Shown in pieces: positions 6,272-63,947 of a DNA stretch of 64,000 bases. The notes under the pieces are model-generated. The model was given only the letters and a program-made list of their open reading frames with translations. It searched no databases and was not told the DNA's origin. The translations under genes were made by a program, and so were the position numbers. Numbering within the stretch: position 1 is the stretch's first letter; the number at the start of each line of letters is the position of its first letter. The stretch comes from Patescibacteria group bacterium (GTDB taxonomy: Bacteria; Patescibacteriota; Microgenomatia; PFEM01; JAHIFH01): the NCBI GenBank assembly GCA_035529375.1, contig DATKWU010000009.1, positions 223,124 through 287,123 of the forward strand. Reading direction: 5' to 3'.

Positions 6272-8449
6272 TTAATGACGTCGAGGCGGTCGACGATTCG
6301 GCCGTCGAGAAAAACCTGAAGAACTTCGCTGCCGAGGTGGTCGATAATCACTCGTTTGTTTGTCTGGCTGCTCCTTTAAAACCATGGTTAAATTAATTCT
6401 CCCCATATCATCAATCTCAGAGACCTTAACTTTAACCTTATCGCCAATCTTAACGACTTCATTAGGGTCCCTAACATATTGAGTTGACATTTTTGAAACA
6501 TGAACCAAACCATCTTTACCTGGTAAGATCTCGACAAAAGCCCCAAAAGGCTGGATTCGCTTGACTTCGCCTTCAAAAATCTCACCTGCTTCAACCTCTC
6601 GAGTCAAACCTTCAATTTTAGCCACAGCCATGTCCACCGCCGCTTTATCAGGTGCAGAAATATTAACTGAGCCATCGTCTTCGACATCAATTGCTGCCCC
6701 AGTTTCCTTAATCAATTCCCTAATAACACGTCCACCGGGACCAATCACTTCACCAATTTTATCTACAGGAATATGAAGAACTCTAATTTTAGGAGCGAAC
6801 TTGGAAATCTGAGCCCGAGAAGCAGGCAAAACAGTCATCATTTTTTTGAGAATAAAATTCCTTCCTTCTTTGGCTCGAGAAACAATCTCCTCGAATAATT
6901 TTAAATCAATACCTTGATTCTTAACATCCATCTGAACAGCCGTCATCCCTTTTTCTGTTCCCGCCAGTTTGAAATCTATATCACCATTAAAATCTTCTAA
7001 TCCTAAGATATCAGTCAAGATTACTTGTTTTCCCCCTTCTTCGATTAAACCCATGGCGATTCCGGCTACTGGTGCCTTAATAGGCGCTCCAGCGTCCATT
7101 AAAGATAAAGTTGAACCGCAAACAGCGGCCATTGAGGTGGAACCATTAGAAGACATTATTTCTGTTACCACCCGAATGGTATAAGGAAATTTATCTTCGG
7201 CAGGAATGACACTTAATAAAGCCTTTTCTGCCAAAGCCCCGTGACCAACTTCCCGACGCTTGGGCCAACCTACATAACCAATTTCTCCCATAGAAAAAGG
7301 CGGCATGTAATAATGATGAATGTAACGTTTGGTCTCCTCACCTTCCATGTTTTCAATTAATTGTTCTAAAGAAGGCGAACCCAAAGTGGTCACCGTCAGA
7401 GCTTGGGTTTGGCCACGTTTAAATATCGCCGATCCATGAGTCCGCGGCAATAAACCAACTTCGACCTCAATTGATCGAATCTCATCTGGTTTTCGACCAT
7501 CAATCCGTTTACCCTTATTGACAATTTGTTCTCTAATACTTTTCTTAATTAAATCATCGATAATTCGATTAATATCTTTTTTGTTCTCTTCACCAAATTC
7601 TTCCCCTAAAGCTTCTTTCACTTCACCGATTAATTCTCTTGCTTCATTTTTGGCCATACTCGTTAAAATCTGGTCAATTTGTTTAGTCGCAACTTCGGTT
7701 ACTTCCTTAACTAATTTTGCATTAACTTTTTTAGTTTCGACTGTTTGCTTCTTTTTACCAACTTTTTTAACTAATGATTCAATTAATTGAATCACCTCTT
7801 TTATTTCTTTTTGGGCAACATCAATTGCTTTGATAAGAATTTCTTCAGGCACTTCTTGGGCTGATCCTTCGATCATAATGGTCTTGTTCTCTTTTCCAGA
7901 AATAATCAAATCCATAATTGAATAACTTAAATCTTGGTAAGTAGGATTAATGACAAACGAACCTTCGCTATTTTTAGGAACATAACCAACTCTCATTGAA
8001 CCCACTGGTCCTTGCCAAGGAAGATCGGAAATAGCCAACGCGGCACTGGTCGCCCAAACTGCCGGCATATCAGGATCGTTCTCACCATCAACCGAAAGAA
8101 CGGTAATCACTACCTGAATATTATCCCGACAGTCCTTAGGAAATAATGGTCGAATAGAGCGATCAATTAAACGAGCTGTCAAAACAGCTTCGTCAGAAGG
8201 CCGACCTTCCCTCTTCACCCAACGGGAACCTTTAATCCGACCGCCAGCATAAAGACGTTCAACATACTCGACTTGAAGAGGCAAATAATCAAGACCTTCT
8301 TGAGGTTCTCCAGAGACAACGGTTGCGAGAACCATTGTATCACCGTAGCGAACTAAAACAGCGGCATTAGCCTGCTCGGCTAAAAGACCAACCTCTAAAG
8401 TTAATTTTTTGCCACCGATTTCTTTTGATTGAGAAACAGTTTTTATCAT
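6272..8449 (-). CDS. pnp: Polyribonucleotide nucleotidyltransferase (PNPase)
   Basis: 725 aa; two RNase PH domains, KH and S1 domains; basic R/P-rich C-terminal tail. Confidence 0.95.
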   Translation of the reverse strand: MIKTVSQSKEIGGKKLTLEVGLLAEQANAAVLVRYGDTMVLATVVSGEPQEGLDYLPLQVEYVERLYAGGRIKGSRWVKREGRPSDEAVLTARLIDRSIRPLFPKDCRDNIQVVITVLSVDGENDPDMPAVWATSAALAISDLPWQGPVGSMRVGYVPKNSEGSFVINPTYQDLSYSIMDLIISGKENKTIMIEGSAQEVPEEILIKAIDVAQKEIKEVIQLIESLVKKVGKKKQTVETKKVNAKLVKEVTEVATKQIDQILTSMAKNEARELIGEVKEALGEEFGEENKKDINRIIDDLIKKSIREQIVNKGKRIDGRKPDEIRSIEVEVGLLPRTHGSAIFKRGQTQALTVTTLGSPSLEQLIENMEGEETKRYIHHYYMPPFSMGEIGYVGWPKRREVGHGALAEKALLSVIPAEDKFPYTIRVVTEIMSSNGSTSMAAVCGSTLSLMDAGAPIKAPVAGIAMGLIEEGGKQVILTDILGLEDFNGDIDFKLAGTEKGMTAVQMDVKNQGIDLKLFEEIVSRAKEGRNFILKKMMTVLPASRAQISKFAPKIRVLHIPVDKIGEVIGPGGRVIRELIKETGAAIDVEDDGSVNISAPDKAAVDMAVAKIEGLTREVEAGEIFEGEVKRIQPFGAFVEILPGKDGLVHVSKMSTQYVRDPNEVVKIGDKVKVKVSEIDDMGRINLTMVLKEQPDKQTSDYRPPRQRSSSGFSRRPNRRPPRRH

Positions 8450-8455
8450 TAGAAA

Positions 8456-8725
8456 CTACTTAGACAACTTCAAATCGCTAATAACATCTTTATAGCGCTT
8501 TTCGTCCCTCTTTAATAAATAAGCTAATAATCTTCTCCTTTTAGAAACAAGCGAAAGCAAGCCTCGTCGGGAATGAACATCTTTTTTATGCTCTTTGAGG
8601 TGGCCGGTTAACTTTTTTACCTTCGCCGTCAACAAAGCCACTTGGACTTCAGGAGAACCCGTATCCTCTTTTGACTGAGCAAATTTCTTAATAATTCTCT
8701 TTTTTTCGTTGGTTGTTAAAGCCAT
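8456..8725 (-). CDS. rpsO: 30S ribosomal protein S15
   Basis: 89 aa; canonical S15 sequence (GSPEVQVALLTAKVKKLTGHLKEHKKDVHSRRGLL). Confidence 0.95.
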   Translation of the reverse strand: MALTTNEKKRIIKKFAQSKEDTGSPEVQVALLTAKVKKLTGHLKEHKKDVHSRRGLLSLVSKRRRLLAYLLKRDEKRYKDVISDLKLSK

Positions 8726-8734
8726 CGGCTCTCT

Positions 8735-8767
8735 ATTTTAACAAAGATAAAAGAGGTTAACAAGAGG
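8735..8767. repeat. 33-bp direct repeat, copy 1 (ATTTTAACAAAGATAAAAGAGGTTAACAAGAGG); carries TTGTTA-N17-TAAAAT on the minus strand upstream of rpsO
   Basis: Identical 33-mer recurs at 9551..9583; the two copies flank xth. Confidence 0.8.
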
Positions 8768-8776
8768 CATAAAACA

Positions 8777-9529
8777 CTAAATTTCTATACCAATCGGACA
8801 ATGGTCCGATCCTTTTACCTCTGGCATAATAAAAGCTTTTTTTAATTTAGATCTTAACTTTTTCGAAACAAAAGCATAATCTATTCGCCAACCCAAATTC
8901 CGTTCCCTGGCCTTAAAAGAATAAGGCCACCAAGTATAATTCCCTCCCTCTTGATGAAACATTCTAAAACTATCTTTAAAATTTAAACTAATTAGTTCAT
9001 CAACTTGTTTTCTTTCTTCTGGAGTAAACATAATATTATTTTGATTCTGACTAGGACGCGCCAAATCAATTTCTTTATAAGCAATATTAAAATCACCAAA
9101 CAAAAGTATCCTTTTATTTTTAATCTTTTTTAAATATTCAAAAAAGTGAGCATAGCTCTTTAATTTATAATTTAAGTTTTCTTTTTGTCTTCCGCCATGA
9201 GGTAGATAAAGATTAATCAAAATAAATTCCTGGTATTCAAGCTTTAAAAATCTTCCTTCTTCATCAAACCTTTTCAGATTAAGTTTTCGCTCAATCAGTA
9301 ACGGTTTTTTCTTAGAATAAACGACGATACCACTATATCCTTTTCTTTTAGCTGAATTAAAATAAGAATAATAGCCTTTGGGAATAACTAAAACATCAGG
9401 TAATTGCTCTTTTTGGGCTTTTATTTCTTGGAGACAAATGATATCCGCGTCCGTTGTTTCCAACCAATCTAAGAAGCCTTTTCGAAAAACAGCTCGCAAA
9501 CCGTTAACGTTCCAAGATACAATCTTCAT
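8777..9529 (-). CDS. xth: Exodeoxyribonuclease III (AP endonuclease, EEP fold)
   Basis: 250 aa; MKIVSWNVNGLRA start; DHCPI C-terminal motif typical of ExoIII/Ape1. Confidence 0.9.
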   Translation of the reverse strand: MKIVSWNVNGLRAVFRKGFLDWLETTDADIICLQEIKAQKEQLPDVLVIPKGYYSYFNSAKRKGYSGIVVYSKKKPLLIERKLNLKRFDEEGRFLKLEYQEFILINLYLPHGGRQKENLNYKLKSYAHFFEYLKKIKNKRILLFGDFNIAYKEIDLARPSQNQNNIMFTPEERKQVDELISLNFKDSFRMFHQEGGNYTWWPYSFKARERNLGWRIDYAFVSKKLRSKLKKAFIMPEVKGSDHCPIGIEI

Positions 9530-9550
9530 TCTTAGTCTTAAATTTTCGTC

Positions 9551-9583
9551 ATTTTAACAAAGATAAAAGAGGTTAACAAGAGG
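9551..9583. repeat. 33-bp direct repeat, copy 2 (identical to 8735..8767); promoter-like TTGTTA-N17-TAAAAT upstream of xth
   Basis: Perfect 33/33 identity with copy 1. Confidence 0.8.
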
Positions 9584-9602
9584 TTAAAGTCGTTGGAAAA
9601 AA

Positions 9603-10502
9603 CTAAACACGGTCCTCACCTTTGTAGATTTTAGGCTCAAACCAATCAGGTTTTGGCTTCTCTATTTCCTCCTCTTCTTCTCTAGTTGGTTGCTTAAGAG
9701 CCGAAACTTTAGCAGGCATTGGTTTCAGAGGAGAGGTGCTTTTAGACTTTTTATTAGGCAATCTAACTTCTCGCCTTGCTCCCATTTTGAGACAAAGAGC
9801 GGCCGCTTCAAAGGTATCAGCACTCACTTTAGGTGAGGAAAATCGGTTGGTGGCTCGTTCAATTCCTTGAAAAAGATTAGTTCCAATATCCCTATCAGTC
9901 AATAATCTCAATAGTCCGATTAGTTTCGCCACTTCTTCAGAAAAGGAGGCGGCTGAAGGATCAACCAAGTTAATTTGGCCGTATTGTTGATTTCGAGAAT
10001 TATTATCTAAGTTAATAACCTGAGTCTCTTTAAAAGCTTCCTGATTATCTTTGTAAAGATTCCCTAAACTCTCTAAGGAACTAGCACCAATCGTAAAAAT
10101 CAAATCCACCTTCCCACCAGTGTAGGAAAATTCGACTTTATCTGAATCAAGAGGCGGATGACCAGGTCTAGGTTTAATCACTAAATTAAACTTACCATCT
10201 TCAATATTGTAACTGACCTTCTCAATCGCATCCTCAATATAATCAAAGGATATACTTAAGCTGTCTTTACCACCCTTAAGGCTATTTTCAATTTTATCAA
10301 CCCCGACGAGCGAAGAAAAACCAACCGTCATTTCGGTTGAACAGCCAATGTTTACTGATTTCTTGGTTGTTCCTAAAGAAAGATAGAGAGCCAAACCAGC
10401 TGCCACTTGATCAAAATTGGGATTTTGGGGCAAGGCAATAAAAACTGTTTGGGCAGTGGCAAGAGCGGATTGAATTTGAGAAGCCTGGCTTTGATTAATC
10501 AT
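9603..10502 (-). CDS. Hypothetical protein at the rbfA/truB/nrnA position; weak DHH-like N-terminus with degenerate catalytic motifs
   Basis: 299 aa between infB and xth. N-terminal VFIALPQNPNFDQVAAGLAL loosely resembles NrnA motif I (HxHxxPDxD) with D-to-N changes; no DHH or GGGH motifs. Confidence 0.25.
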   Translation of the reverse strand: MINQSQASQIQSALATAQTVFIALPQNPNFDQVAAGLALYLSLGTTKKSVNIGCSTEMTVGFSSLVGVDKIENSLKGGKDSLSISFDYIEDAIEKVSYNIEDGKFNLVIKPRPGHPPLDSDKVEFSYTGGKVDLIFTIGASSLESLGNLYKDNQEAFKETQVINLDNNSRNQQYGQINLVDPSAASFSEEVAKLIGLLRLLTDRDIGTNLFQGIERATNRFSSPKVSADTFEAAALCLKMGARREVRLPNKKSKSTSPLKPMPAKVSALKQPTREEEEEIEKPKPDWFEPKIYKGEDRV

Positions 10503-11951
10503 TTACTCTTCCACTTTTCGATAAGAGATTAGCACATCACCTATCTGGAAGTCAAGCGTAGGTGAGAGAATCGCCCCGAATTCCTCATCTTTTTTAGCTT
10601 TCTCAATATCCTTTTTCTCAGTTTTCATTGATCTGATACGACAGTTACCGATTAGCTCTCCAAGGCGTTGGAGATGAAGCTGATCAGTTTTTTTAATTTC
10701 ACCCTCAATTACCCGACAACCAGCCACTCGCTGTTTGTCGATCTCAAATTCCTGAAGCATCTCGGCGCGTCCCGAAATTTCTTCATCGGCCATGGGTTCT
10801 AGCTTTTTTTTAACCTTTTCTTCAATCTCTTCAAAAAATTTGTAAATAATCTGAAAAGGGCTAATTTTTACTTTTTCGGTGGCAGCTAATTTCTTAACTT
10901 TTCCTGGAGTTTTAACATTAAAAGCAATAATTTCTGCTCCTGTTGTTTCGGCCAACAAAACATCTGATTCGTTAACTTCACCTACACTTGAATTAATGAC
11001 TTTTACTCCCTCAGGCAAACCAGCTAAAATAGCTTCTAAACTACCATTAACATCAGCTTTGATAATCAAATTCAATTTTTCCTCATCAGTTTCTTCTTTT
11101 TTAACTAGACTAGGAATTGCTTTTTTTTCTAAGGAAACTGGTTCTTTTTCAGTCCGTCTAAGAGTACTACCAATTGTTGGTACGGTTTTAAAACCTAAGA
11201 CCTCAACTGGTTTGCTCGGACCGGTGGTTTTTACTCTTTGACCACTTTCATCAAACATGGCCTTGATTTTAGCAAAGGTACCATCAGCTTCAATCTGGTC
11301 ACCGACTCGTAAATTGCCATTCCTGACCAAAATTGTAGCTAAGGGACCACGATACTTATCTAACTTAGATTCGATCACTAGAGCTTTCAACTCAGCTCCT
11401 GGTTTCTCTTTAATTTCTTCCATCTCTGCCACTAACAAAATCATTTCCAAAAGTTCATCAATCCCTTTGCCTGTTTTGGCAGACACCGATACGCTCACAA
11501 TCTTACCCCCTTGGTCTTCGACCAAGACATTGTTCTTAGCTAAATTTGCTTTTACTTGCTTTAGATCAAAATGAGGTAAATCAATCTTGTTAATGGCGAC
11601 TAGATAGGGAATTTTCGCTTGTTCAATATATTTTAGACTCTCTAAAGTTTGGGGTTTAACACCTTCATCAGCCGCCACCACTAGAACGGCGAGATCAGCG
11701 ACTTTGGCACCCCGAGAACGCATCTCTGAAAAAGCGGCATGGCCGGGAGTATCAACAAAAGTAATGGTTTTGTTTTTAAATTTTATTTGGTAGGCACCAA
11801 TGTGTTGGGTAATACCGCCAAATTCTTTAGCAACGACATTGGTCTGACGAATCTTATCTAGAAGAGTGGTTTTACCGTGATCAACATGGCCAAGGATAAC
11901 CACCACTGGTGGTCGTGAAGAATTTTGAGAAATGTTTTTCTCCTTTGCCAT
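10503..11951 (-). CDS. infB: Translation initiation factor IF-2 (short form lacking N-terminal extension)
   Basis: G domain VVVILGHVDHGKTTLLD, DTPGH, NKID; 482 aa. Confidence 0.95.
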   Translation of the reverse strand: MAKEKNISQNSSRPPVVVILGHVDHGKTTLLDKIRQTNVVAKEFGGITQHIGAYQIKFKNKTITFVDTPGHAAFSEMRSRGAKVADLAVLVVAADEGVKPQTLESLKYIEQAKIPYLVAINKIDLPHFDLKQVKANLAKNNVLVEDQGGKIVSVSVSAKTGKGIDELLEMILLVAEMEEIKEKPGAELKALVIESKLDKYRGPLATILVRNGNLRVGDQIEADGTFAKIKAMFDESGQRVKTTGPSKPVEVLGFKTVPTIGSTLRRTEKEPVSLEKKAIPSLVKKEETDEEKLNLIIKADVNGSLEAILAGLPEGVKVINSSVGEVNESDVLLAETTGAEIIAFNVKTPGKVKKLAATEKVKISPFQIIYKFFEEIEEKVKKKLEPMADEEISGRAEMLQEFEIDKQRVAGCRVIEGEIKKTDQLHLQRLGELIGNCRIRSMKTEKKDIEKAKKDEEFGAILSPTLDFQIGDVLISYRKVEE

Positions 11952-34974: not shown

Positions 34975-36789
34975 ATGCCTCTAGTGTTAAGCCATATTCT
35001 AACCCAACTCAACCCTTCCCAGCAAGAAGCCGTTACTTTTGGCGAAGGGCCCCTTTTGATTCTAGCGGGTGCCGGTAGTGGGAAAACTCGCGCCTTAACT
35101 TTCCGAACTGCCTATTTAATTCAGGAAAAAAAGATCCCTTCAGAAAATATTCTTTTATTAACTTTTACTAACAAAGCCGCTGGCGAAATGAAAGAAAGAA
35201 TCCAAAAGTTACTCAGTCACTCCCAAAATGAACTCCCTTTTGCCGGGACTTTTCATTCTTTTTGCGCTCGCCTCTTAAGAACTGAAGGAAAACATCTTGG
35301 CATCTCCCCTAACTACAGTATTTATGATGAAGCTGATCAGCTAGAAACAATTAAATTAGCGATGATCAAAATCGATGCTTCGTCAAAAGAATTCAAACCT
35401 GCTTCGATTTTAAACACTATCTCCCAAGTAAAAAACGAGCTTATCTCGGCAGCTGAATATCCCCAATATGCTCGGGGTTTTTTCCAAGAAACAGTGGCTC
35501 GAGTTTATTTGGCTTACCAAAAATTACTTAAAGAATACCAGGCCCTAGATTTTGATGACTTATTATTTGAGACTGTTAGACTTTTTCAAAAAGAAAAACC
35601 AGTTTTGCAGAAATATCAAAATCAATTTCAATATCTTCTCATTGACGAATATCAGGATACCAACCAGGCCCAGTATATTCTAACCAAACTCCTAGCCAAT
35701 AAATGGCGTAATCTCTGCGCTGTTGGTGACGCCGCCCAAGCTATCTATGGCTGGCGGGGAGCTAATTATCGCAACCTAATGAGTCTTAAAAAGGATTTTC
35801 CTGACTTAACCATTATTAATCTGGAACAAAATTATCGTTCCACCCAAAACATTCTCCAAGCCGCTAATGGAGTCATTAGAAAAAACACCAAACATCCGAT
35901 TCTCAATCTCTGGACCAAAAATCAGGCTGGCGAAAAATTAATCGTCTTTGAAGCTAATAACGAGCAGGAAGAAGCCCAATATATTATTAATGGTATTGTC
36001 AGTCAAGGCGGTGATTACAATGATTACGTTGTTCTCTATCGGACCAACGCCCAATCCCGAGTTATTGAAGAAGCTTTTCTTCATGCTGGTTTACCTTACA
36101 CTCTGGTTGGTGGGACCCGCTTTTATGAAAGAAAGGAAATTAAAGATTGTTTAGCCTATTTAAGACTTTTAACCAACCCTAAAGACATGGCCTCTTATAA
36201 GAGAATCCAAAAATTAGGTAAAAGAAGATTTAAAAAATTCCTTAAATTTACTGAAGAATTCGATAAAAAGAAATCAAAGATTAGATTAACCACTCTGGAA
36301 ATTTTGGATAAAGTTCTTGAAGCTGCCGATTACTTAGATCTTTACAATAAAAAAGATGAAGCCGATTCAACAAGATTGGAAAATATTAAAGAACTTCGTT
36401 CGGTGGCTACCGAATTCCCCAAGCTAGATAATTTTTTAGAGAATGTTGCCCTTGTCCAGCAAGAATATCTGCCTCAAAACCCCATTCAAAATCAGAAAAA
36501 AAACGCGGTTACTTTAATGACGGTTCATGCCGCTAAAGGAACCGAATTCCCAGTTGTTTTTATGGTTGGAATGGAGGAGGGTCTCTTTCCTCATTCGCGG
36601 AGTATCATGGACAGAGAAGAACTTGAGGAAGAAAGACGCCTCTGTTATGTAGGCATGACTCGGGCTAAAGAAAAACTCTACCTTATTTATACTCACCAAC
36701 GCCTTTATTTTGGCCAACGTTCAACTAACCCACCTTCAAGATTCTTAGCTGATATTCCTCTTAATTTAGTTGAGACCTCATCGACTTGA
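34975..36789 (+). CDS. UvrD/PcrA-family ATP-dependent DNA helicase (short)
   Basis: Motif I AGAGSGKT, motif II DEYQDT, QNYRS and VHAAKGTEF motifs. Confidence 0.85.
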   Translation: MPLVLSHILTQLNPSQQEAVTFGEGPLLILAGAGSGKTRALTFRTAYLIQEKKIPSENILLLTFTNKAAGEMKERIQKLLSHSQNELPFAGTFHSFCARLLRTEGKHLGISPNYSIYDEADQLETIKLAMIKIDASSKEFKPASILNTISQVKNELISAAEYPQYARGFFQETVARVYLAYQKLLKEYQALDFDDLLFETVRLFQKEKPVLQKYQNQFQYLLIDEYQDTNQAQYILTKLLANKWRNLCAVGDAAQAIYGWRGANYRNLMSLKKDFPDLTIINLEQNYRSTQNILQAANGVIRKNTKHPILNLWTKNQAGEKLIVFEANNEQEEAQYIINGIVSQGGDYNDYVVLYRTNAQSRVIEEAFLHAGLPYTLVGGTRFYERKEIKDCLAYLRLLTNPKDMASYKRIQKLGKRRFKKFLKFTEEFDKKKSKIRLTTLEILDKVLEAADYLDLYNKKDEADSTRLENIKELRSVATEFPKLDNFLENVALVQQEYLPQNPIQNQKKNAVTLMTVHAAKGTEFPVVFMVGMEEGLFPHSRSIMDREELEEERRLCYVGMTRAKEKLYLIYTHQRLYFGQRSTNPPSRFLADIPLNLVETSST

Positions 36790-36806
36790 TTTGTTATCAT
36801 AGAACT

Positions 36807-37823
36807 ATGATTATTCGCGAAGTCCTGCCTGAAGAAAAAGATCAATTTAACACCGTAGTTAATCACCCTCTTCAAACTTGGGAATGGGGAGAATTCCGGA
36901 AAAAAACTGGTCTGGAAGTGATTCGTCTCGGCCTTTTTGATGAGAAAAAAATCAAGGCTGGTTACCAGGTCACTGTCCACCCTATCCCTAAACTCCCTTA
37001 TAGCATCATTTACTTTCCTAAGGGGCCAATGCCTGATAAAAGGTTGATTGACGCTTTGATTAAGCTAGGCCAAAAAGAAAAAGCGATTCTAGTTAAACTT
37101 GAGCCTAATATTTTGACTGACGAAAAAAATTCCAAACCTGAAGTTTGGCAAAACTTTAAGTTAAAGCCAGGCGACCCCTATTTCACCAAACATACCTTTT
37201 ACCTTGATTTAACTAAAAGTGATGAAGAATTAATGACGGCGATGAAACCAAAAACTCGTTATAATCTTCGCCTCTCTCAAAAACATGTGATCGAGGTAGC
37301 TGAGGATAACTCGCCAAAAGCCTTTGAGGTTTACCTTAAACTGATGGCTGAAACCACCAAAAGACAAGGTTTTTATGCCCATACCCCAGAATACCACCAA
37401 AAAATGTGGGAGACCCTTCAACCAACTGGTCTAGCTCATCTTTTAACGGCTGATTATCAAGGAAAAATTTTGGTCACCTGGGTTTTGTTTAAATTCAAAG
37501 ATGTTCTTTATTATCCTTATGGCTGGTCCACTAGAGAACACCAAAATGTGATGGCTTCTTACGCCATGATGTGGGCGGCGATTCAGTTTGGTAAAAAACA
37601 GGGCTGCAAGCTTTTTGATTTATGGGGAACACCTGGACCTGATCCCAGTCCCCAAGATCCTTGGTTTGGTTTTCATCGCTTTAAACTTGGCTTTGGCGCT
37701 AAAGTGGTGGAATTTGTTGGCACTTATGATTTGGTGATTGATCACCGTTTTTATCCTGTCTTTAACTTGGCTAATGCCTTACGCTGGAAATTACTTCGTC
37801 TAAGAACGAAACTGCCATTTTAA
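36807..37823 (+). CDS. FemAB-family peptidoglycan peptide-bridge aminoacyltransferase
   Basis: About 340 aa with the FemAB/GNAT-like two-domain pattern; start adjusted to MIIREV. Confidence 0.6.
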   Translation: MIIREVLPEEKDQFNTVVNHPLQTWEWGEFRKKTGLEVIRLGLFDEKKIKAGYQVTVHPIPKLPYSIIYFPKGPMPDKRLIDALIKLGQKEKAILVKLEPNILTDEKNSKPEVWQNFKLKPGDPYFTKHTFYLDLTKSDEELMTAMKPKTRYNLRLSQKHVIEVAEDNSPKAFEVYLKLMAETTKRQGFYAHTPEYHQKMWETLQPTGLAHLLTADYQGKILVTWVLFKFKDVLYYPYGWSTREHQNVMASYAMMWAAIQFGKKQGCKLFDLWGTPGPDPSPQDPWFGFHRFKLGFGAKVVEFVGTYDLVIDHRFYPVFNLANALRWKLLRLRTKLPF

Positions 37824-38654
37824 ATGGATTTACGTCAATCAAAGGAATTCGCCCACTATATGAGACTTTCTGGCTGGCGAGTAGAAAAAGTGAGTAATTG
37901 CTTTTTCTACATCCGTAAATTACCCTTGTTACCACCTCTGATTATGAAAGCCCAGTATCCTAATTCGCCGATTCCCTTCGAAGGGATTGAAAAACTGGCA
38001 AAAAAATACAAACCCCTTCAAATCCAAATCCAACCTTTAAAAACAGAACCAGGTTTGGAAAAGTATGGTTATCGATTAAGCGGTGGTGGTCATGTGACGA
38101 AAACTCTTCAAATTAACCTCAATCAATCTGAAAAGAAAATCCGTGAACAAATGAAGAAAGATGCTCGTTATAGCCTTAGAAAAGCAGAAAAAGAAAAATT
38201 ACAAATCATTGAAATACTTGATTTAGAAAAATTCCGGCAGGCCTGGAGAAAAGCTGTTGGCTGGCGAAAATATGTTCCTTCTTTAAAAAATTTAAAAAAT
38301 CTTAAAAAAGCCTTTACCAGAAAAGCTCTTTTTCTGACCGCTCAATCTCAAGGTAAAATTGTGGGCGGGACAATCATTCTAACTACTAATAGTAGTGCTT
38401 ACTATTACTCTGCCTTTACTTCTAAAGAAGGCCGAAAAAAATTAGCTCAATATCTTTTAGTTTGGGAGGCAATGAGATTAACTAAAAAAAGAGGTTGTCA
38501 GATTTTTGATTTTGAAGGGACCTATGATCAAAGATTTCCAATTAAAGATTGGCAAGGATTTAGTCATTTTAAAAAAAGTTTTGGTGGTCAAGAAGTTGAA
38601 TATCCAGGCTGTTTTAAAAAAATCTTCTTGAATTATCCAAAAGAAAGAGCCTAA
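37824..38654 (+). CDS. FemAB-like/GNAT-fold acyltransferase paralogue
   Basis: 276 aa; similar tandem arrangement; C-terminal GNAT-like core (QIFDFEGTYD...). Confidence 0.45.
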   Translation: MDLRQSKEFAHYMRLSGWRVEKVSNCFFYIRKLPLLPPLIMKAQYPNSPIPFEGIEKLAKKYKPLQIQIQPLKTEPGLEKYGYRLSGGGHVTKTLQINLNQSEKKIREQMKKDARYSLRKAEKEKLQIIEILDLEKFRQAWRKAVGWRKYVPSLKNLKNLKKAFTRKALFLTAQSQGKIVGGTIILTTNSSAYYYSAFTSKEGRKKLAQYLLVWEAMRLTKKRGCQIFDFEGTYDQRFPIKDWQGFSHFKKSFGGQEVEYPGCFKKIFLNYPKERA

Positions 38655-38709
38655 AGCTCACGTGAGCTAAAGGCTCCATGTACCTCCAGAAGTTTGTCCA
38701 GAAACTGGA

Positions 38710-39501
38710 CTATTTCGGCACCAGTATCTCCAAAACCCTCAATACACTAGAAGAGAGAGAGACTCTGGTCTCTGAGATAACCTTTATCCCTCCGCCGGCC
38801 CGAAAATCGCCAACTTGGAGATGAATATTGCCACACCAATTCACTGTCCTAGTGAATGCAGGAGTGGACGATTGCCGGGTTATCTCTGAACCATACGTAA
38901 GACGTAGCCAAAGCGCTTCTTCCGCCGTTGGAATGATTGCTCTGACTTCTCCCTCTAAGCTGGTCAACGCAGGGTTCCCAACCGCGAGCTCGGCACTACC
39001 AGTCTCGTGGCGCAGAACATCGGTTGTAGAATAAGCTGCGAGCGGCTGATCAGGTCGCCAAGCTATCTCCCTTGGTATCGTAGGAAAACTGTCAAACCGG
39101 GAAAGCTCTGGATACACTCGCGACCCCATAGTGTCGAAGTCCCACATCGAAACAAGGGTCATCCCTGGTGGAACGCTGACGATCTTATAGTTCATCTCCA
39201 CCAAAGCATTCTTTGCTAGTGGTTTGAACTTGCGCTCCAACTGGAGAACCTCTTTCAATTGAGGGAGATCAACTCGACGAGGATCAACTCGTAAGATGAG
39301 ATTCATCAACTCTGTTAACGGACGCTCTCCTTCCGCCAGCATCTGTGACTCTCCATGAGTCAAGTTGACTCGTGAAAGGATCCGCAACATAAGCTGACTC
39401 AGTTCACTCAACTGTCCTTTTGTTTGAGCACTCCGCTTTACATTCACGGCACACTCTCCTTTTCGCCAGTTAGTTCTGAAGGTACGAAGACAGCTTATCA
39501 T
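38710..39501 (-). CDS. Orphan protein in a GC-rich (about 50 %) compositional island; function unknown
   Basis: 263-aa ORF; R/L/S/T/E-rich composition unlike the K/I/N-rich host proteome. An internal Met at 39342 (MLAEGERP...) is preceded by a GGAGAG SD and may be the true start. Confidence 0.5.
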   Translation of the reverse strand: MISCLRTFRTNWRKGECAVNVKRSAQTKGQLSELSQLMLRILSRVNLTHGESQMLAEGERPLTELMNLILRVDPRRVDLPQLKEVLQLERKFKPLAKNALVEMNYKIVSVPPGMTLVSMWDFDTMGSRVYPELSRFDSFPTIPREIAWRPDQPLAAYSTTDVLRHETGSAELAVGNPALTSLEGEVRAIIPTAEEALWLRLTYGSEITRQSSTPAFTRTVNWCGNIHLQVGDFRAGGGIKVISETRVSLSSSVLRVLEILVPK

Positions 39502-39530
39502 GAAAAACCAAGAAAATCAACCTATAGAAT

Positions 39531-42413
39531 TTAAGACCAGGCTTCACAGATAAGTTTGTACTCGCAAAAGTCACACCAGACTCCGGGTCTTGGTTCAAAT
39601 TGACTTCTCTCAATTTCCTTGGCTTTTTTGATTAGGTCTTTTTTTGCTTGAATCAATTGTTCTTTGCTTCTTTGAGTTGATTTTTTCTCACCTGTATCAA
39701 GGAAATAAAAGGACAAAACCACGTCTTCTGGATTTTGTCTGAGAATTCCCGGGTCAATCGCTGCTAAAGCATAAACACTCATTTGTAATGATCTGTCCAA
39801 TTCTTTTTGATCAATCACTTTTCCGGTCTTGTAATCAATAATTTCCATTCCTGACTTGGTTTCGTCGATCCGGTCAATTCGACCGCCAATCCTTAGACCT
39901 TCTTTGGCTTTAATCACAAAATTTTGTTCTAAATACTTAGGTAAGTGGTCCAGGTTATAGCCTTTATCATAGAATTTTCTTAACATCCGTTCAGCTTCTT
40001 TCCGCATCCGCTTTTCATGAGCCTTAGAGGTATAACCTTCGTCGCTCCAATTTTTATCTAAAGTATTTAATAAATCTTTTTTTGTTGGTTTTTTATCTTC
40101 TAAGGCTGCTTGATAAAAATCTTTTAAGGTTTGATGAATCACATTACCAAAACCAGCCGCCGGTGGGGTTGGCGTGGGAATTCTTTGAATGTAACGATAA
40201 CGGTATTGGAGAGGACATTTATCATAAGTCTCTACCTGAGAAAAAGATAAATAATTAATAGGTAAGCGGTTTCTTTCTGACTTTACTTCTGGGGTTGGTC
40301 TAAAATCAAAAATAGTTAATTGATCATCAGCTTTTATTGGCTTTTTAATTATTTCTTCACCTAAGGCTTCTGTTACAAAAGAAGAAATCTTTTTCTCTCT
40401 TTTGGCTTCACCATAATAATTGGCGGCCGTTAAAAACAAACGGTCACAAGCTCGGGTCATGCCCACGTAAAATAACCGCCTTTCTTCTTGTTCGTGATAA
40501 TCACCTATAGGTAAAGTTTCTTTAATCAAAGCTTCAGGAATCGGAATTTGTTCTGGTCTTTCTCGGGTGGGGAAACGAGCTGTTACTAAATTAACCAAAA
40601 AAACCACCGGAAACTCCAGACCTTTAGCTGAATGAACGGTTAGGAGATTAACTCGATTTTCTTCAGTCCAATCCAAATTACTGGCTAAGGGTGATTCACC
40701 TAAATCCATGGAGAGATTAAGCCAATTAACTACGGCTCTGACCGAGGCATCCTCATGATCAACTTCATAAGTCTTAAGGCGATCAAAAAATTTAGAAATA
40801 TTTTGGGCTTGTTTTTCTTCAGTCGGTGATTTGTAATCAGCTAAATTCTTTAATAAACCGGTGTCTTCAAGAAAATAATAGAGAATTTGACCAGCCGTTT
40901 CTTTGGAAAGGAGTTTAAGATGACGGTAAACCATTTTAACAAATTCATCAATCTGATTTTTGGTTTTTTTACTGATTCTTAGTCTCTCTGCTTGTTCACA
41001 AGCTTCAAACAAAGAAAGGTTCTTTCTCTTAGCATAATTATTAATAGCCGCCAAATCCCGGGCATCCAGATTGAATAAATCCAGGGAAAGAACTCGGTAA
41101 AGAGCCAGGTCATCTTCGAAATTGTAAAGGATCTTAAGATAAGCAATTAAGTCTTTGACTTCAGCTTGACGAAAGAGTTGACCGGGACCAAGAAATTGAT
41201 AAGGCAGACCCTGGCGAGCCAGGGCCCGGACAAAAGGTTCAGCATGATTGTTTGCCCGAACTAAGATAGCGATGTCCTGATAGTCATAACTACCAACTGA
41301 ACCATCAATCAGACTTTTAATCGTTTTAGCCACGGCTTCAGCTTCGTTTTCCACCCGATCAGTCTGAATAAACTCAATTGGCTTACCTTTAATTTTTCTG
41401 ACGGCTTTAAGTTTTTTATCGATTTTTTCTTTGACCTCTAAGCGATCAGGGTTGTTATTTTGAATTAACTGGTAGGCATGATCAAGAATTATTTGGCTAG
41501 AACGATAGTTTTTAGCAAGAACCACAATCTTAGCTTTGGGATAGTTTTTTCGGAACTGAATAACATTGGAAACGGCAGCTCCCCGAAAACGATAAATTGA
41601 TTGATCATCATCGCCAGTCACGGTAAGATTCGCTTTCTTGCCTGCTAAAAGCATCGCCAATTCATTTTGGGCATAATTGGTATCTTGAAACTCATCAACT
41701 AAAAAATATTTAAATTTATTTTGATACTGATGGAGAATATTTTTTCGGGTTCGAAAAAGTTTAATGGTTTTACTAATTAAATCAGCAAAATCCATCATTC
41801 CTTCTTTAATTTTTAATTCTTCATAGGTTCGATAAGCATTGGCTAATTCCAATGTCTTGGTCGCTTCATCCTTGGCTTCTTTGGTCTTAGCTTTTTGTTT
41901 TAATTTCCGAGCGTGCTTCAGATATTCTTCAGGCAAAATATCTTCATCTTTTAATCGAGAAAAATGTTGGAGAAGACCATCTACAAATTTAGTCGGATTA
42001 CCTAAGGGCCGAAAATATTCAAGTTTAAATTTAAAAAGATGGTTAATCAGAAACTGGGTGGTTTCTGCCTGGGCCATCAGTTTGTAACCCGGATCAAGGC
42101 CAATCTGGAGGGCTTCTTGGCGCAAAACCCGGTCACAAAAAGAATGGAAGGTGGCAATCCACATATCGGTGTAACCATAAGGCATGGCAATATCGACTCG
42201 TTCTTCCATTTCTCGAGCCGCTTTATCAGTAAAAGTCAGAGCTAGAATTTCAGCGGGTTTGGCTTTTTCAGAAGTCACCAACCATTTAATTCTTTCTGTA
42301 ATGACCGTGGTTTTGCCAGTGCCAGCGCCAGCCATAATCAAAAGAGGGCCTTCGCCGTGTTTAATTGCTTCTTGCTGTTTCTTGTTTAATTTTTTCCCTT
42401 TGGAATTAGCCAT
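39531..42413 (-). CDS. UvrD/PcrA-like helicase fused to C-terminal PD-(D/E)XK (Cas4/AddB-type) nuclease
   Basis: 960 aa; helicase motifs (AGAGTGKT, DEFQDT); C-terminal IIDYKTGK and CDFCEYKLIC Cys cluster. Confidence 0.85.
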   Translation of the reverse strand: MANSKGKKLNKKQQEAIKHGEGPLLIMAGAGTGKTTVITERIKWLVTSEKAKPAEILALTFTDKAAREMEERVDIAMPYGYTDMWIATFHSFCDRVLRQEALQIGLDPGYKLMAQAETTQFLINHLFKFKLEYFRPLGNPTKFVDGLLQHFSRLKDEDILPEEYLKHARKLKQKAKTKEAKDEATKTLELANAYRTYEELKIKEGMMDFADLISKTIKLFRTRKNILHQYQNKFKYFLVDEFQDTNYAQNELAMLLAGKKANLTVTGDDDQSIYRFRGAAVSNVIQFRKNYPKAKIVVLAKNYRSSQIILDHAYQLIQNNNPDRLEVKEKIDKKLKAVRKIKGKPIEFIQTDRVENEAEAVAKTIKSLIDGSVGSYDYQDIAILVRANNHAEPFVRALARQGLPYQFLGPGQLFRQAEVKDLIAYLKILYNFEDDLALYRVLSLDLFNLDARDLAAINNYAKRKNLSLFEACEQAERLRISKKTKNQIDEFVKMVYRHLKLLSKETAGQILYYFLEDTGLLKNLADYKSPTEEKQAQNISKFFDRLKTYEVDHEDASVRAVVNWLNLSMDLGESPLASNLDWTEENRVNLLTVHSAKGLEFPVVFLVNLVTARFPTRERPEQIPIPEALIKETLPIGDYHEQEERRLFYVGMTRACDRLFLTAANYYGEAKREKKISSFVTEALGEEIIKKPIKADDQLTIFDFRPTPEVKSERNRLPINYLSFSQVETYDKCPLQYRYRYIQRIPTPTPPAAGFGNVIHQTLKDFYQAALEDKKPTKKDLLNTLDKNWSDEGYTSKAHEKRMRKEAERMLRKFYDKGYNLDHLPKYLEQNFVIKAKEGLRIGGRIDRIDETKSGMEIIDYKTGKVIDQKELDRSLQMSVYALAAIDPGILRQNPEDVVLSFYFLDTGEKKSTQRSKEQLIQAKKDLIKKAKEIERSQFEPRPGVWCDFCEYKLICEAWS

Positions 42414-63263: not shown

Positions 63264-63947
63264 TCATGCTCTTGCCGACTCTCCTGCTGGTGCGGTCTTC
63301 CTCAGAAGAACAATCGTTGTTACTGCTCCGGAGAACATCCAGAAGACAATGAAACCCACCAGGTACAAACCTCTCGAGTTGCTTGGAGGGACACCCCATG
63401 TCGACTGAACAAGAGTCTCGAACCAAAGAGTACCCCCTATACCCGAGGCGATCCAGGCTACTGTTCCGAATAGAAAAGCAGTAGCATCTCTGTATCTTGA
63501 ACCAAGAAAGCCACTGATCATCGATAGGCAACCCGTAAGAGTCCCTATCATCAGCCCTCCCAGGAGAAGGAGGAGATTGGTCGCCATCTGAGGTCCGGTC
63601 TGGTTGGTGATAATCGCCAAGGCGACTGGAACCGAACAATAGAGTGAGAAGAGGACTGGCTCGATGTATTTGAGCCGCCAACCGCTCGCTCTTTCGATCC
63701 GGTTACCTAGATCGATGACGTAAATCGCCACGTAGAACCAAACAGGACTAGCGATGACGAGGGAGATAACCAGATGGCGGGTTATGAGCCAAAAGACAAA
63801 ACCCGCCAAGGTCGGTCCTCCAATCCAGATGAGTATCTCCCGTGCCAACGAACTCCGGGGGCCTTCGGTTAAGACGAAATAGATTAGCCAACCGAAGCCC
63901 AATACAGTTAGACCTACTATCGTCAAAACGAGCCAAACAGCCAACAT
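63264..63947 (-). CDS. Orphan 7-TM membrane protein in a GC-rich (about 50 %) compositional island
   Basis: 227 aa; seven hydrophobic helices; G/L/A/W/R-rich composition atypical for this genome; SD GGAGGGAG upstream of ATG. Confidence 0.5.
   Translation of the reverse strand: MLAVWLVLTIVGLTVLGFGWLIYFVLTEGPRSSLAREILIWIGGPTLAGFVFWLITRHLVISLVIASPVWFYVAIYVIDLGNRIERASGWRLKYIEPVLFSLYCSVPVALAIITNQTGPQMATNLLLLLGGLMIGTLTGCLSMISGFLGSRYRDATAFLFGTVAWIASGIGGTLWFETLVQSTWGVPPSNSRGLYLVGFIVFWMFSGAVTTIVLLRKTAPAGESARA

Follow-up and report, generated by a model that had tools for sequence, protein, structure and literature searches.

A GC-rich island between two conserved genes of a Patescibacteria genome, a probable acquired cassette for a lectin-fold relative of diversity-generating retroelement variable proteins

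We examined a 64-kb window (the whole stretch of DNA analysed) of a Patescibacteria (Microgenomates-type) genome and focused on an 876-bp island of high GC content at bases 38655-39530, located between the convergent stop codons of a UvrD/PD-(D/E)XK helicase-nuclease gene and a second FemAB paralogue. The island is a self-contained gene cassette that comprises promoter-like boxes, a Shine-Dalgarno (SD) sequence, a GTG start, 245 codons and an intrinsic terminator. We consider it probable that this cassette was acquired horizontally and that its product is a lectin-fold protein from a family of variable proteins of diversity-generating retroelements (DGRs), here without a reverse transcriptase (RT) nearby and likely acting as a binder of fixed specificity. 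The features of the cassette, all on the minus strand, are the following:

38638..38676, minus strand: intrinsic terminator of the island gene, with 15-nt inverted-repeat arms (38647-38661 and 38662-38676, 13 of 15 positions paired) and then UUUCUUUUG
38696..38710, minus strand: 6-bp hairpin GTCCAG-TTT-CTGGAC, overlapping the stop codon
38710..39447, minus strand: protein-coding gene that starts with GTG (39445-39447) and encodes 245 aa before a TAG stop; 100% identity to the gene call P0001 of JGI
39454..39461, minus strand: SD sequence AAGGAGAG, read from the sequence, 6 nt upstream of the GTG start
39492..39497, minus strand: -10-like box TAAGCT, 17 nt from the -35 box (TATATC in other occupied loci)
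39515..39520, minus strand: -35-like box TTGATT, 10-15 nt past the helicase stop codon (39531-39533)

The first-pass annotation of this DNA had described a long minus-strand open reading frame (ORF), to be read either as a 263-aa protein or, from an internal Met behind GGAGAG, as a 210-aa one. The ORF (38710-39501, 263 codons) and the GGAGAG are both present, yet both versions are less likely than the 245-aa form. We chose 38710-39447 as the gene because the homologues begin at the GTG version and because the SD and GTG are common to the window and L082, the locus of the closest homologue, where the block AAAAGGAGAGTGTRCCGTGAA (SD, 6 nt, GTG) is nearly identical. Moreover, the ATG of the 263-aa version (39499-39501) falls inside the promoter-like spacer, which argues against that start. 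The TTGAYT box is kept in register in the window and in L003, L084, L086 and L082, with a 17-nt spacer of variable sequence; in the occupied loci, TTGAYT, the 17-nt spacer and TATATC directly follow the helicase stop, the second box of the window being TAAGCT. Since the boxes are conserved in register, we read them as a putative promoter, which would be active in this genome; a strict sigma-70 consensus scan called no promoter at the island. Start and expression signals were conserved across five loci. At the other end of the cassette, the terminator hairpin extends over the end of the FemAB paralogue (its final codons and the stop, 38652-38654), and an equivalent hairpin with a T-run is found at the same place in L003, L084, L087 and L082. 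The perfect 14-bp palindrome AGCTCACGTGAGCT (38655-38668), which had been placed at the host-side boundary of the island, turned out to be the apex of this hairpin, and the larger hairpin after the gene seems adequately explained as a terminator.

We gathered 80 syntenic loci from Patescibacteria metagenome-assembled genomes (MAGs) with the helicase as query, a comparison among relatives that the first-pass annotation had proposed. In the closest relative, L002 (helicase 94% and FemAB 86% identical), the two convergent genes meet end to end or overlap and the island is absent, so that the cassette is an insertion relative to this genome. Six further loci (L004, L008, L036, L044, L047 and L064) also have an empty site. 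By contrast, L003 (helicase 85% identical) carries an insert of 2 kb in which two divergent paralogues belonging to the family stand in tandem (8962-9942 and 10074-10826), and L084, L086 and L087 each have a family member at this junction, next to either the helicase or the FemAB pair. Unrelated inserts were found as well: two of 4.5 kb (L006, 8868-13402; L039, 10005-14579) that encode large proteins in which the N-terminus is hydrophobic and the linkers are rich in Pro and Thr, and two of about 0.9 kb (L020, 8871-9725; L012, 8883-9834) with a single ORF each. The 124-bp spacer of L014 (8982-9106), with 50% GC, might be a remnant.

Because empty, family-bearing and unrelated-insert versions occur among the relatives, the helicase/FemAB junction is a variable hot spot in this lineage. 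Hot spots of integration or replacement between conserved core genes are a general concept, and the present case resembles it in that a single junction of conserved convergent genes is either empty or holds one or two family copies or unrelated cargo of 0.85-4.5 kb. It differs in that the junction yielded no integrase, transposase, tRNA or flanking repeats. The TTAA present at both island edges was considered as a target-site duplication and dismissed as uninformative in AT-rich sequence.

The family defined here (P0001-P0008, P0001 being the window protein of 245 aa) is very sparse, with approximately 8 clusters among 5.8 billion proteins. A word-indexed search of those 5.8 billion proteins returned the island gene alone. 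An exhaustive phmmer search of 1.84 billion cluster representatives detected five relatives (P0002-P0006; 28-43% identity, E-values from 1.8e-36 to 4.8e-4), and a profile search added two clusters (P0007 and P0008). The members resemble the window protein over their full length, with identities of 21-40% in alignment A5 and up to 43% by phmmer, and share the motifs EVAWxPxxP, PTxExA (PTAE), TRTVN (TRxxN), LVVGxF and a C-terminal LGxLRLIVP (alignments A1 and A5). Scans of metagenome and viral collections with the family pattern recovered no relatives, and the family profile gave a single marginal match against PDB sequences, to an RNase and probably by chance (E 0.006). The earlier description of the gene as an orphan was therefore approximately right, given that a family of about 8 clusters exists. 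The statement that no family could be recognised holds for Pfam, NCBIfam, PHROGs, PADLOC and Rfam but not beyond them, since phmmer uncovered this unannotated one. Among its members, the 326-aa forms P0003 and P0007 show an internal duplication of an N-terminal helical module of about 45 aa. The copy of L087 (58-840) has an in-frame TGA at codon 187, and the homology continues in frame to the ...LGVLRLVVPC end; this copy is either interrupted by a nonsense codon or affected by a sequencing error, and an interrupted copy indicates decay in some lineages.

The link of this family to DGRs comes from L083, where the P0005 gene (7905-8462) has bAvd and a reverse transcriptase gene (RVT_1) as its neighbours. 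The DGR block as a whole (7905-10378) is inserted between secD (6530-7801) and secF (10381-11271), and includes a variable repeat (VR) and a template repeat (TR):

L083 8338-8449: VR, a 112-nt direct repeat at the 3' end of the P0005 gene, approximately its 38 last codons
L083 8810-8921: TR, intergenic, 85% identical to the VR
L083 8924-9355, minus strand: bAvd (Pfam family)
L083 9338-10378, plus strand: RT (RVT_1, Pfam family)

Of the 17 mismatches between VR and TR, 15 are at TR adenines, nearly all of them at codon positions 1-2. Transfer from TR to VR with adenine-specific mutagenesis is the defining signature of DGRs (PMC3240598), and because of this signature in the mismatches, P0005 is a bona fide DGR variable protein. 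The L083 RT falls in a very large clade of Patescibacteria RTs, for which at least 6,680 homologues were counted. Template repeats were sought in the other family loci as well, and none was found except in L083. The layout of L083 is unusual, since avd is divergent from the RT gene and overlaps its start.

We modelled the window protein with AlphaFold2 and obtained a mean predicted local distance difference test (pLDDT) score of 67, with residues 70-245 mostly at 78-94; P0005, modelled as an independent test, reached a pLDDT of 76.7 and a predicted template modelling score of 0.76. The following parts were distinguished in the window protein:

39238..39447, minus strand: N-terminal helical module, residues 1-70, helices in the AlphaFold2 model with pLDDT below 50; duplicated in P0003/P0007
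38713..39237, minus strand: predicted C-terminal C-type-lectin-fold domain, residues ~71-245
38719..38838, minus strand: segment equivalent to the VR of P0005, residues 204-243, mapped through alignment A5 from the L083 VR (8338-8449)

According to these models, the window protein carries a C-type-lectin fold in its C-terminal domain, as DGR variable proteins do. The models match the DGR proteins TvpA, Mtd and TaqVP at the level of this fold, and the best structural matches also include SUMF2, PvdO, OvoA, SenA, EgtB and PorK. A Foldseek search against the PDB gave nothing significant. No signal peptide or hydrophobic segment is evident in the window protein sequence, and the protein is probably cytoplasmic.

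We then searched for DGR components around the window copy, in a region of about 84 kb that consisted of the window and 10 kb past each of its edges. No repeat of the 3' 320 nt of the gene, and thus no TR, was present in this region; tblastn with the RT and Avd of L083 returned nothing over the window and flanks, and neither RVT_1 nor bAvd appeared in the Pfam tables of the flanks. The proteins P0001, P0010 and P0009 (from JGI, ENA/Logan and NCBI contigs, respectively) are identical through the C-terminus, in a comparison of consensus assemblies. The orthologues P0003 and P0007 differ along the whole protein and not preferentially at the C-terminus, so that VR-confined variation between populations was not seen in the contig records compared. 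As for cis elements, the VR-equivalent is followed by the 6-bp hairpin over the stop codon and then by the hairpin with 15-nt arms; an initiation of mutagenic homing element is undefinable without a TR. The position of the 6-bp hairpin resembles that of the post-VR hairpin of DGR targets (PMC3240598), and such a function here is speculative. Given that the ~84 kb yielded no TR, RT or Avd and that every contig record has the same protein sequence, we consider the window copy most likely to be a member of the DGR variable-protein family that lacks an RT and does not diversify.

The window protein can be compared with three groups of known proteins. It shares a C-terminal C-type-lectin fold with Mtd of a Bordetella phage (1yu0), TvpA of Treponema (2y3c) and TaqVP of Thermus (5vf4), judging from the models. 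It differs from them in sequence, with no similarity detectable either to them or to any Pfam family; in having no TR, Avd or RT nearby and being invariant between assemblies; in the lack of a signal peptide, a membrane anchor or a phage-tail context; and in its small size (245 aa) with a short helical N-terminal module. The C-type-lectin-like domains of the FGE-sulfatase, EgtB and PvdO type are among the best structural matches, a resemblance at fold level only, without a sequence match to PF03781 or related models or evidence of catalytic residues. Finally, the host lineage of the window agrees with that of the cellular DGRs of Patescibacteria, also named candidate phyla radiation (CPR) (DGR clade 2; Roux et al. 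2021, PMC8144416), and L083 has the typical RT, Avd, TR and C-terminal VR target, with thousands of RT relatives in Patescibacteria MAGs. The differences are that the window holds the target-family gene alone and that, in L083, avd is on the strand opposite to the RT and the element splits secD/secF. DGR targets are known to bear a C-terminal VR on a C-type-lectin (C-Lec) fold, 68% of them are unannotated, and novel C-Lec variants are expected in CPR (PMC8144416).

The base composition of the island departs strongly from that of its surroundings. The jump from roughly 36% to roughly 50% GC reported by the first-pass annotation was borne out in 200-nt windows, which rise from 31-35% (38400-38700) to 47-55% (38700-39500) and return to 35-36% beyond 39500. 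Over all 876-bp windows (mean 38.5%, sd 3.1), the island had the highest GC content (48.9%, z = 3.3), and it was also the strongest tetranucleotide outlier (rank 1 of 632, z = 4.9). The codon-adaptation value of the island ORF (0.50) was the second-lowest among the 47 long ORFs of the window (median 0.685), and its GC at codon positions 1, 2 and 3 was.545,.447 and.496, against a host GC3 of ~.30. With host codon usage, the gene would be expected to have 44.1% GC, whereas 49.9% was observed; about half of the GC excess is thus due to amino-acid make-up and about half to foreign synonymous codon usage. The unusual amino-acid usage noted earlier was found for the enrichment in R, L and S and the scarcity of K and I (R, L, S, P and V are up; K, I, F and Y are down) but not for E and N, which are host-like. 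Adenine depletion of the whole gene was tried as a DGR footprint and rejected: A and T are about equally reduced in the window copy, hence an A-specific depletion is not the cause of its GC content.

The suggestion that the gene was recently acquired from a donor of higher GC fits three of these observations together, namely the empty site of L002, the synonymous half of the GC excess, and the location of the closest homologue. That homologue, P0002 of L082, lies on a contig of 47% GC and is 40-43% identical to the window protein. The copies in the nearest occupied relatives, whose helicases are 78-85% identical, reach only 21-24%. On one side of the L082 cassette stand the 28 final helicase codons (897-980, with stop codons before them), and on the other a short vestige of the FemAB tail (~1960-1990), in a context that is otherwise unrelated (RRM_1, DUF2196, DUF6941 and PP2C genes). 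To judge from the sequence, these remnants are the apparent footprint of a whole inter-gene segment that moved, and because of them we infer an exchange at the junction through the conserved gene ends. The cassette may accordingly be pictured as having entered the helicase/FemAB junction horizontally, possibly by homologous exchange via the conserved ends of the flanking genes. In a DGR-linked relative, the RT rewrites the last ~38 codons from the TR with adenine-specific errors, and such rewriting diversifies the side of the lectin fold that binds ligands. The scaffold has been kept in the window copy, which most likely now acts as a binding protein of fixed specificity, a 'retired' or RT-less variable protein.

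Several other explanations were weighed against this reading. The most serious one, which we hold to be unlikely, is that the gene is an old resident of the junction that was lost in L002 and others, its high GC being intrinsic (through a protein or nucleic-acid constraint) and not the mark of a recent import. The members at the same junction in L003, L084, L086 and L087, with their conserved promoter and terminator elements, would agree with long residence, as would the share of the GC excess that stems from amino-acid composition. All family genes are also 4-13 GC points above their own contig, including a gene of 61% GC in a host of 48.5% GC, and this host-independent excess is not fully explained by a recent arrival, which weighs against horizontal acquisition. 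Long residence is difficult to reconcile, though, with a protein that is so much closer to the one of L082, in a different context, than to the copies of its nearest occupied relatives, with a GC3 of 0.50 against 0.30 in the host and such low codon adaptation, or with the clean empty site of the sister genome L002; furthermore, the window copy (+11 GC points over its contig) is among the most deviant of the family, which fits a recent arrival from a GC-richer lineage. It is unlikely, too, that a DGR elsewhere in the genome, outside the ~84 kb, targets the gene remotely and still diversifies its C-terminal 40 codons in trans. The absence of TR, RT and Avd from the region examined and the identical VR-equivalent in all contig records from several sources speak against diversification in trans, even if the family is DGR-targeted in L083, Patescibacteria very commonly have RTs of the L083 clade, remote targets have been described (PMC8144416), and the small hairpin lies right past the stop codon, where DGR targets carry their recognition hairpin (PMC3240598). 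We regard as quite improbable a further variant in which the cassette is a mobile 'target-only' DGR module that moves between Patescibacteria genomes independently of an RT, is swapped at the helicase/FemAB junction and can be diversified again in trans by a resident DGR; if so, the host-independent GC excess would reflect a constraint linked to retrohoming and not simple foreign origin.

Explanations that do not involve DGR biology fared worse than the acquisition of a DGR-family gene. The first-pass annotation had suggested defence or toxin cargo, and the gene is indeed accessory, sparse, compositionally foreign and located in a variable hot spot. Yet Pfam, NCBIfam and PADLOC profile searches of the island protein gave nothing at E <= 10, a PHROGs search gave noise only (E > 0.1), the cassette has no partner gene, and the fold and family link point to a lectin-type binding scaffold, which makes cargo of that kind very unlikely and leaves the proposal without support. 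A large structured non-coding RNA with a fortuitous ORF was also considered, as GC-rich islands of low-GC genomes are often RNAs and RNA folding of the island gave moderate z-scores (plus strand, -2.8; minus strand, -3.4). It was rejected once protein homologues surfaced. No Rfam 15 family reached the gathering score in the island, where only chance-level matches appeared at E <= 10 (the sole Rfam match in the window is a tRNA-Cys at 56134-56206), an open frame of 263 codons has a chance of ~3e-6 per frame, the domain modelled by AlphaFold2 is confidently folded, and the homologues are conserved as proteins (21-43% identity), showing patterns of motifs, indels and frame that are typical of coding sequence. 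Because of this protein-level homology, the RNA reading is effectively refuted, and we regard it as extremely improbable. Finally, the sharp compositional borders at both gene ends could have been produced by a chimeric join to DNA of a higher-GC organism, as the first-pass annotation had alternatively proposed. The same order of helicase, gene and FemAB recurs, however, in independent assemblies (JGI 3300031566, contig Ga0307378_10000045; ENA ERZ27256828, contig k141_4062333; Logan SRR8554511; and the NCBI MAG protein HUV42778.1, locus tag VMY36_02610), a mis-join is therefore excluded for practical purposes, and paralogues at the same site in related genomes speak against it as well.

The family is new and unannotated, while the class of DGR variable proteins with a C-type-lectin fold was already known. 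Our results thus add an extremely sparse, unannotated family of predicted C-type-lectin fold to the catalogue of DGR variable proteins of Patescibacteria, and document a copy that is separated from the diversifying machinery. RT-less copies escape DGR surveys that start from the RT, and remote DGR targets are known to go undetected (PMC8144416). Such copies matter for understanding the gain, fixation, exchange and loss of hypervariable binding proteins in bacteria with reduced genomes that are probably host-dependent. For annotation, the case illustrates that GC-rich islands of low-GC genomes are not always structured RNAs or chimeras. Since the biology described here extends a known system and overturns nothing, its practical consequences are modest.

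The neighbourhood of the island (36786-38654, 34975-36789 and 39531-42413) comprises a tandem pair of FemAB-family paralogues together with two helicases of the UvrD type; one of the helicases has a C-terminal PD-(D/E)XK nuclease with a Cys cluster (AddB-like), and RmuC adjoins it. The arrangement of this FemAB/helicase block is conserved over many Patescibacteria loci.

Two further islands had been described as similar to the one at 38.7 kb, which was true of one of them in part. The gene at 63264-63947 (minus strand; 227 aa, 51.5% GC) is a comparable compositional outlier, with the lowest codon adaptation of the window (0.46), and was found in 8 contig records of the same organism. Its product is very hydrophobic, resembles a multi-pass membrane protein and has no match in Pfam, NCBIfam or PADLOC; no sequence relatedness to the 38.7-kb protein was detected when the two were compared. 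The other one (55880-56090, plus strand) is a feature of a different kind, a non-coding intergenic stretch of ~210 nt with 50-56% GC just upstream of the tRNA-Cys gene. This stretch, a candidate for an unclassified small RNA, contains no long ORF and no Rfam match and has a plus-strand RNA fold z-score of -3.2; at its end stands a strong hairpin (GGGAGCC...GGCUCC) with UUUUUCUU after it.
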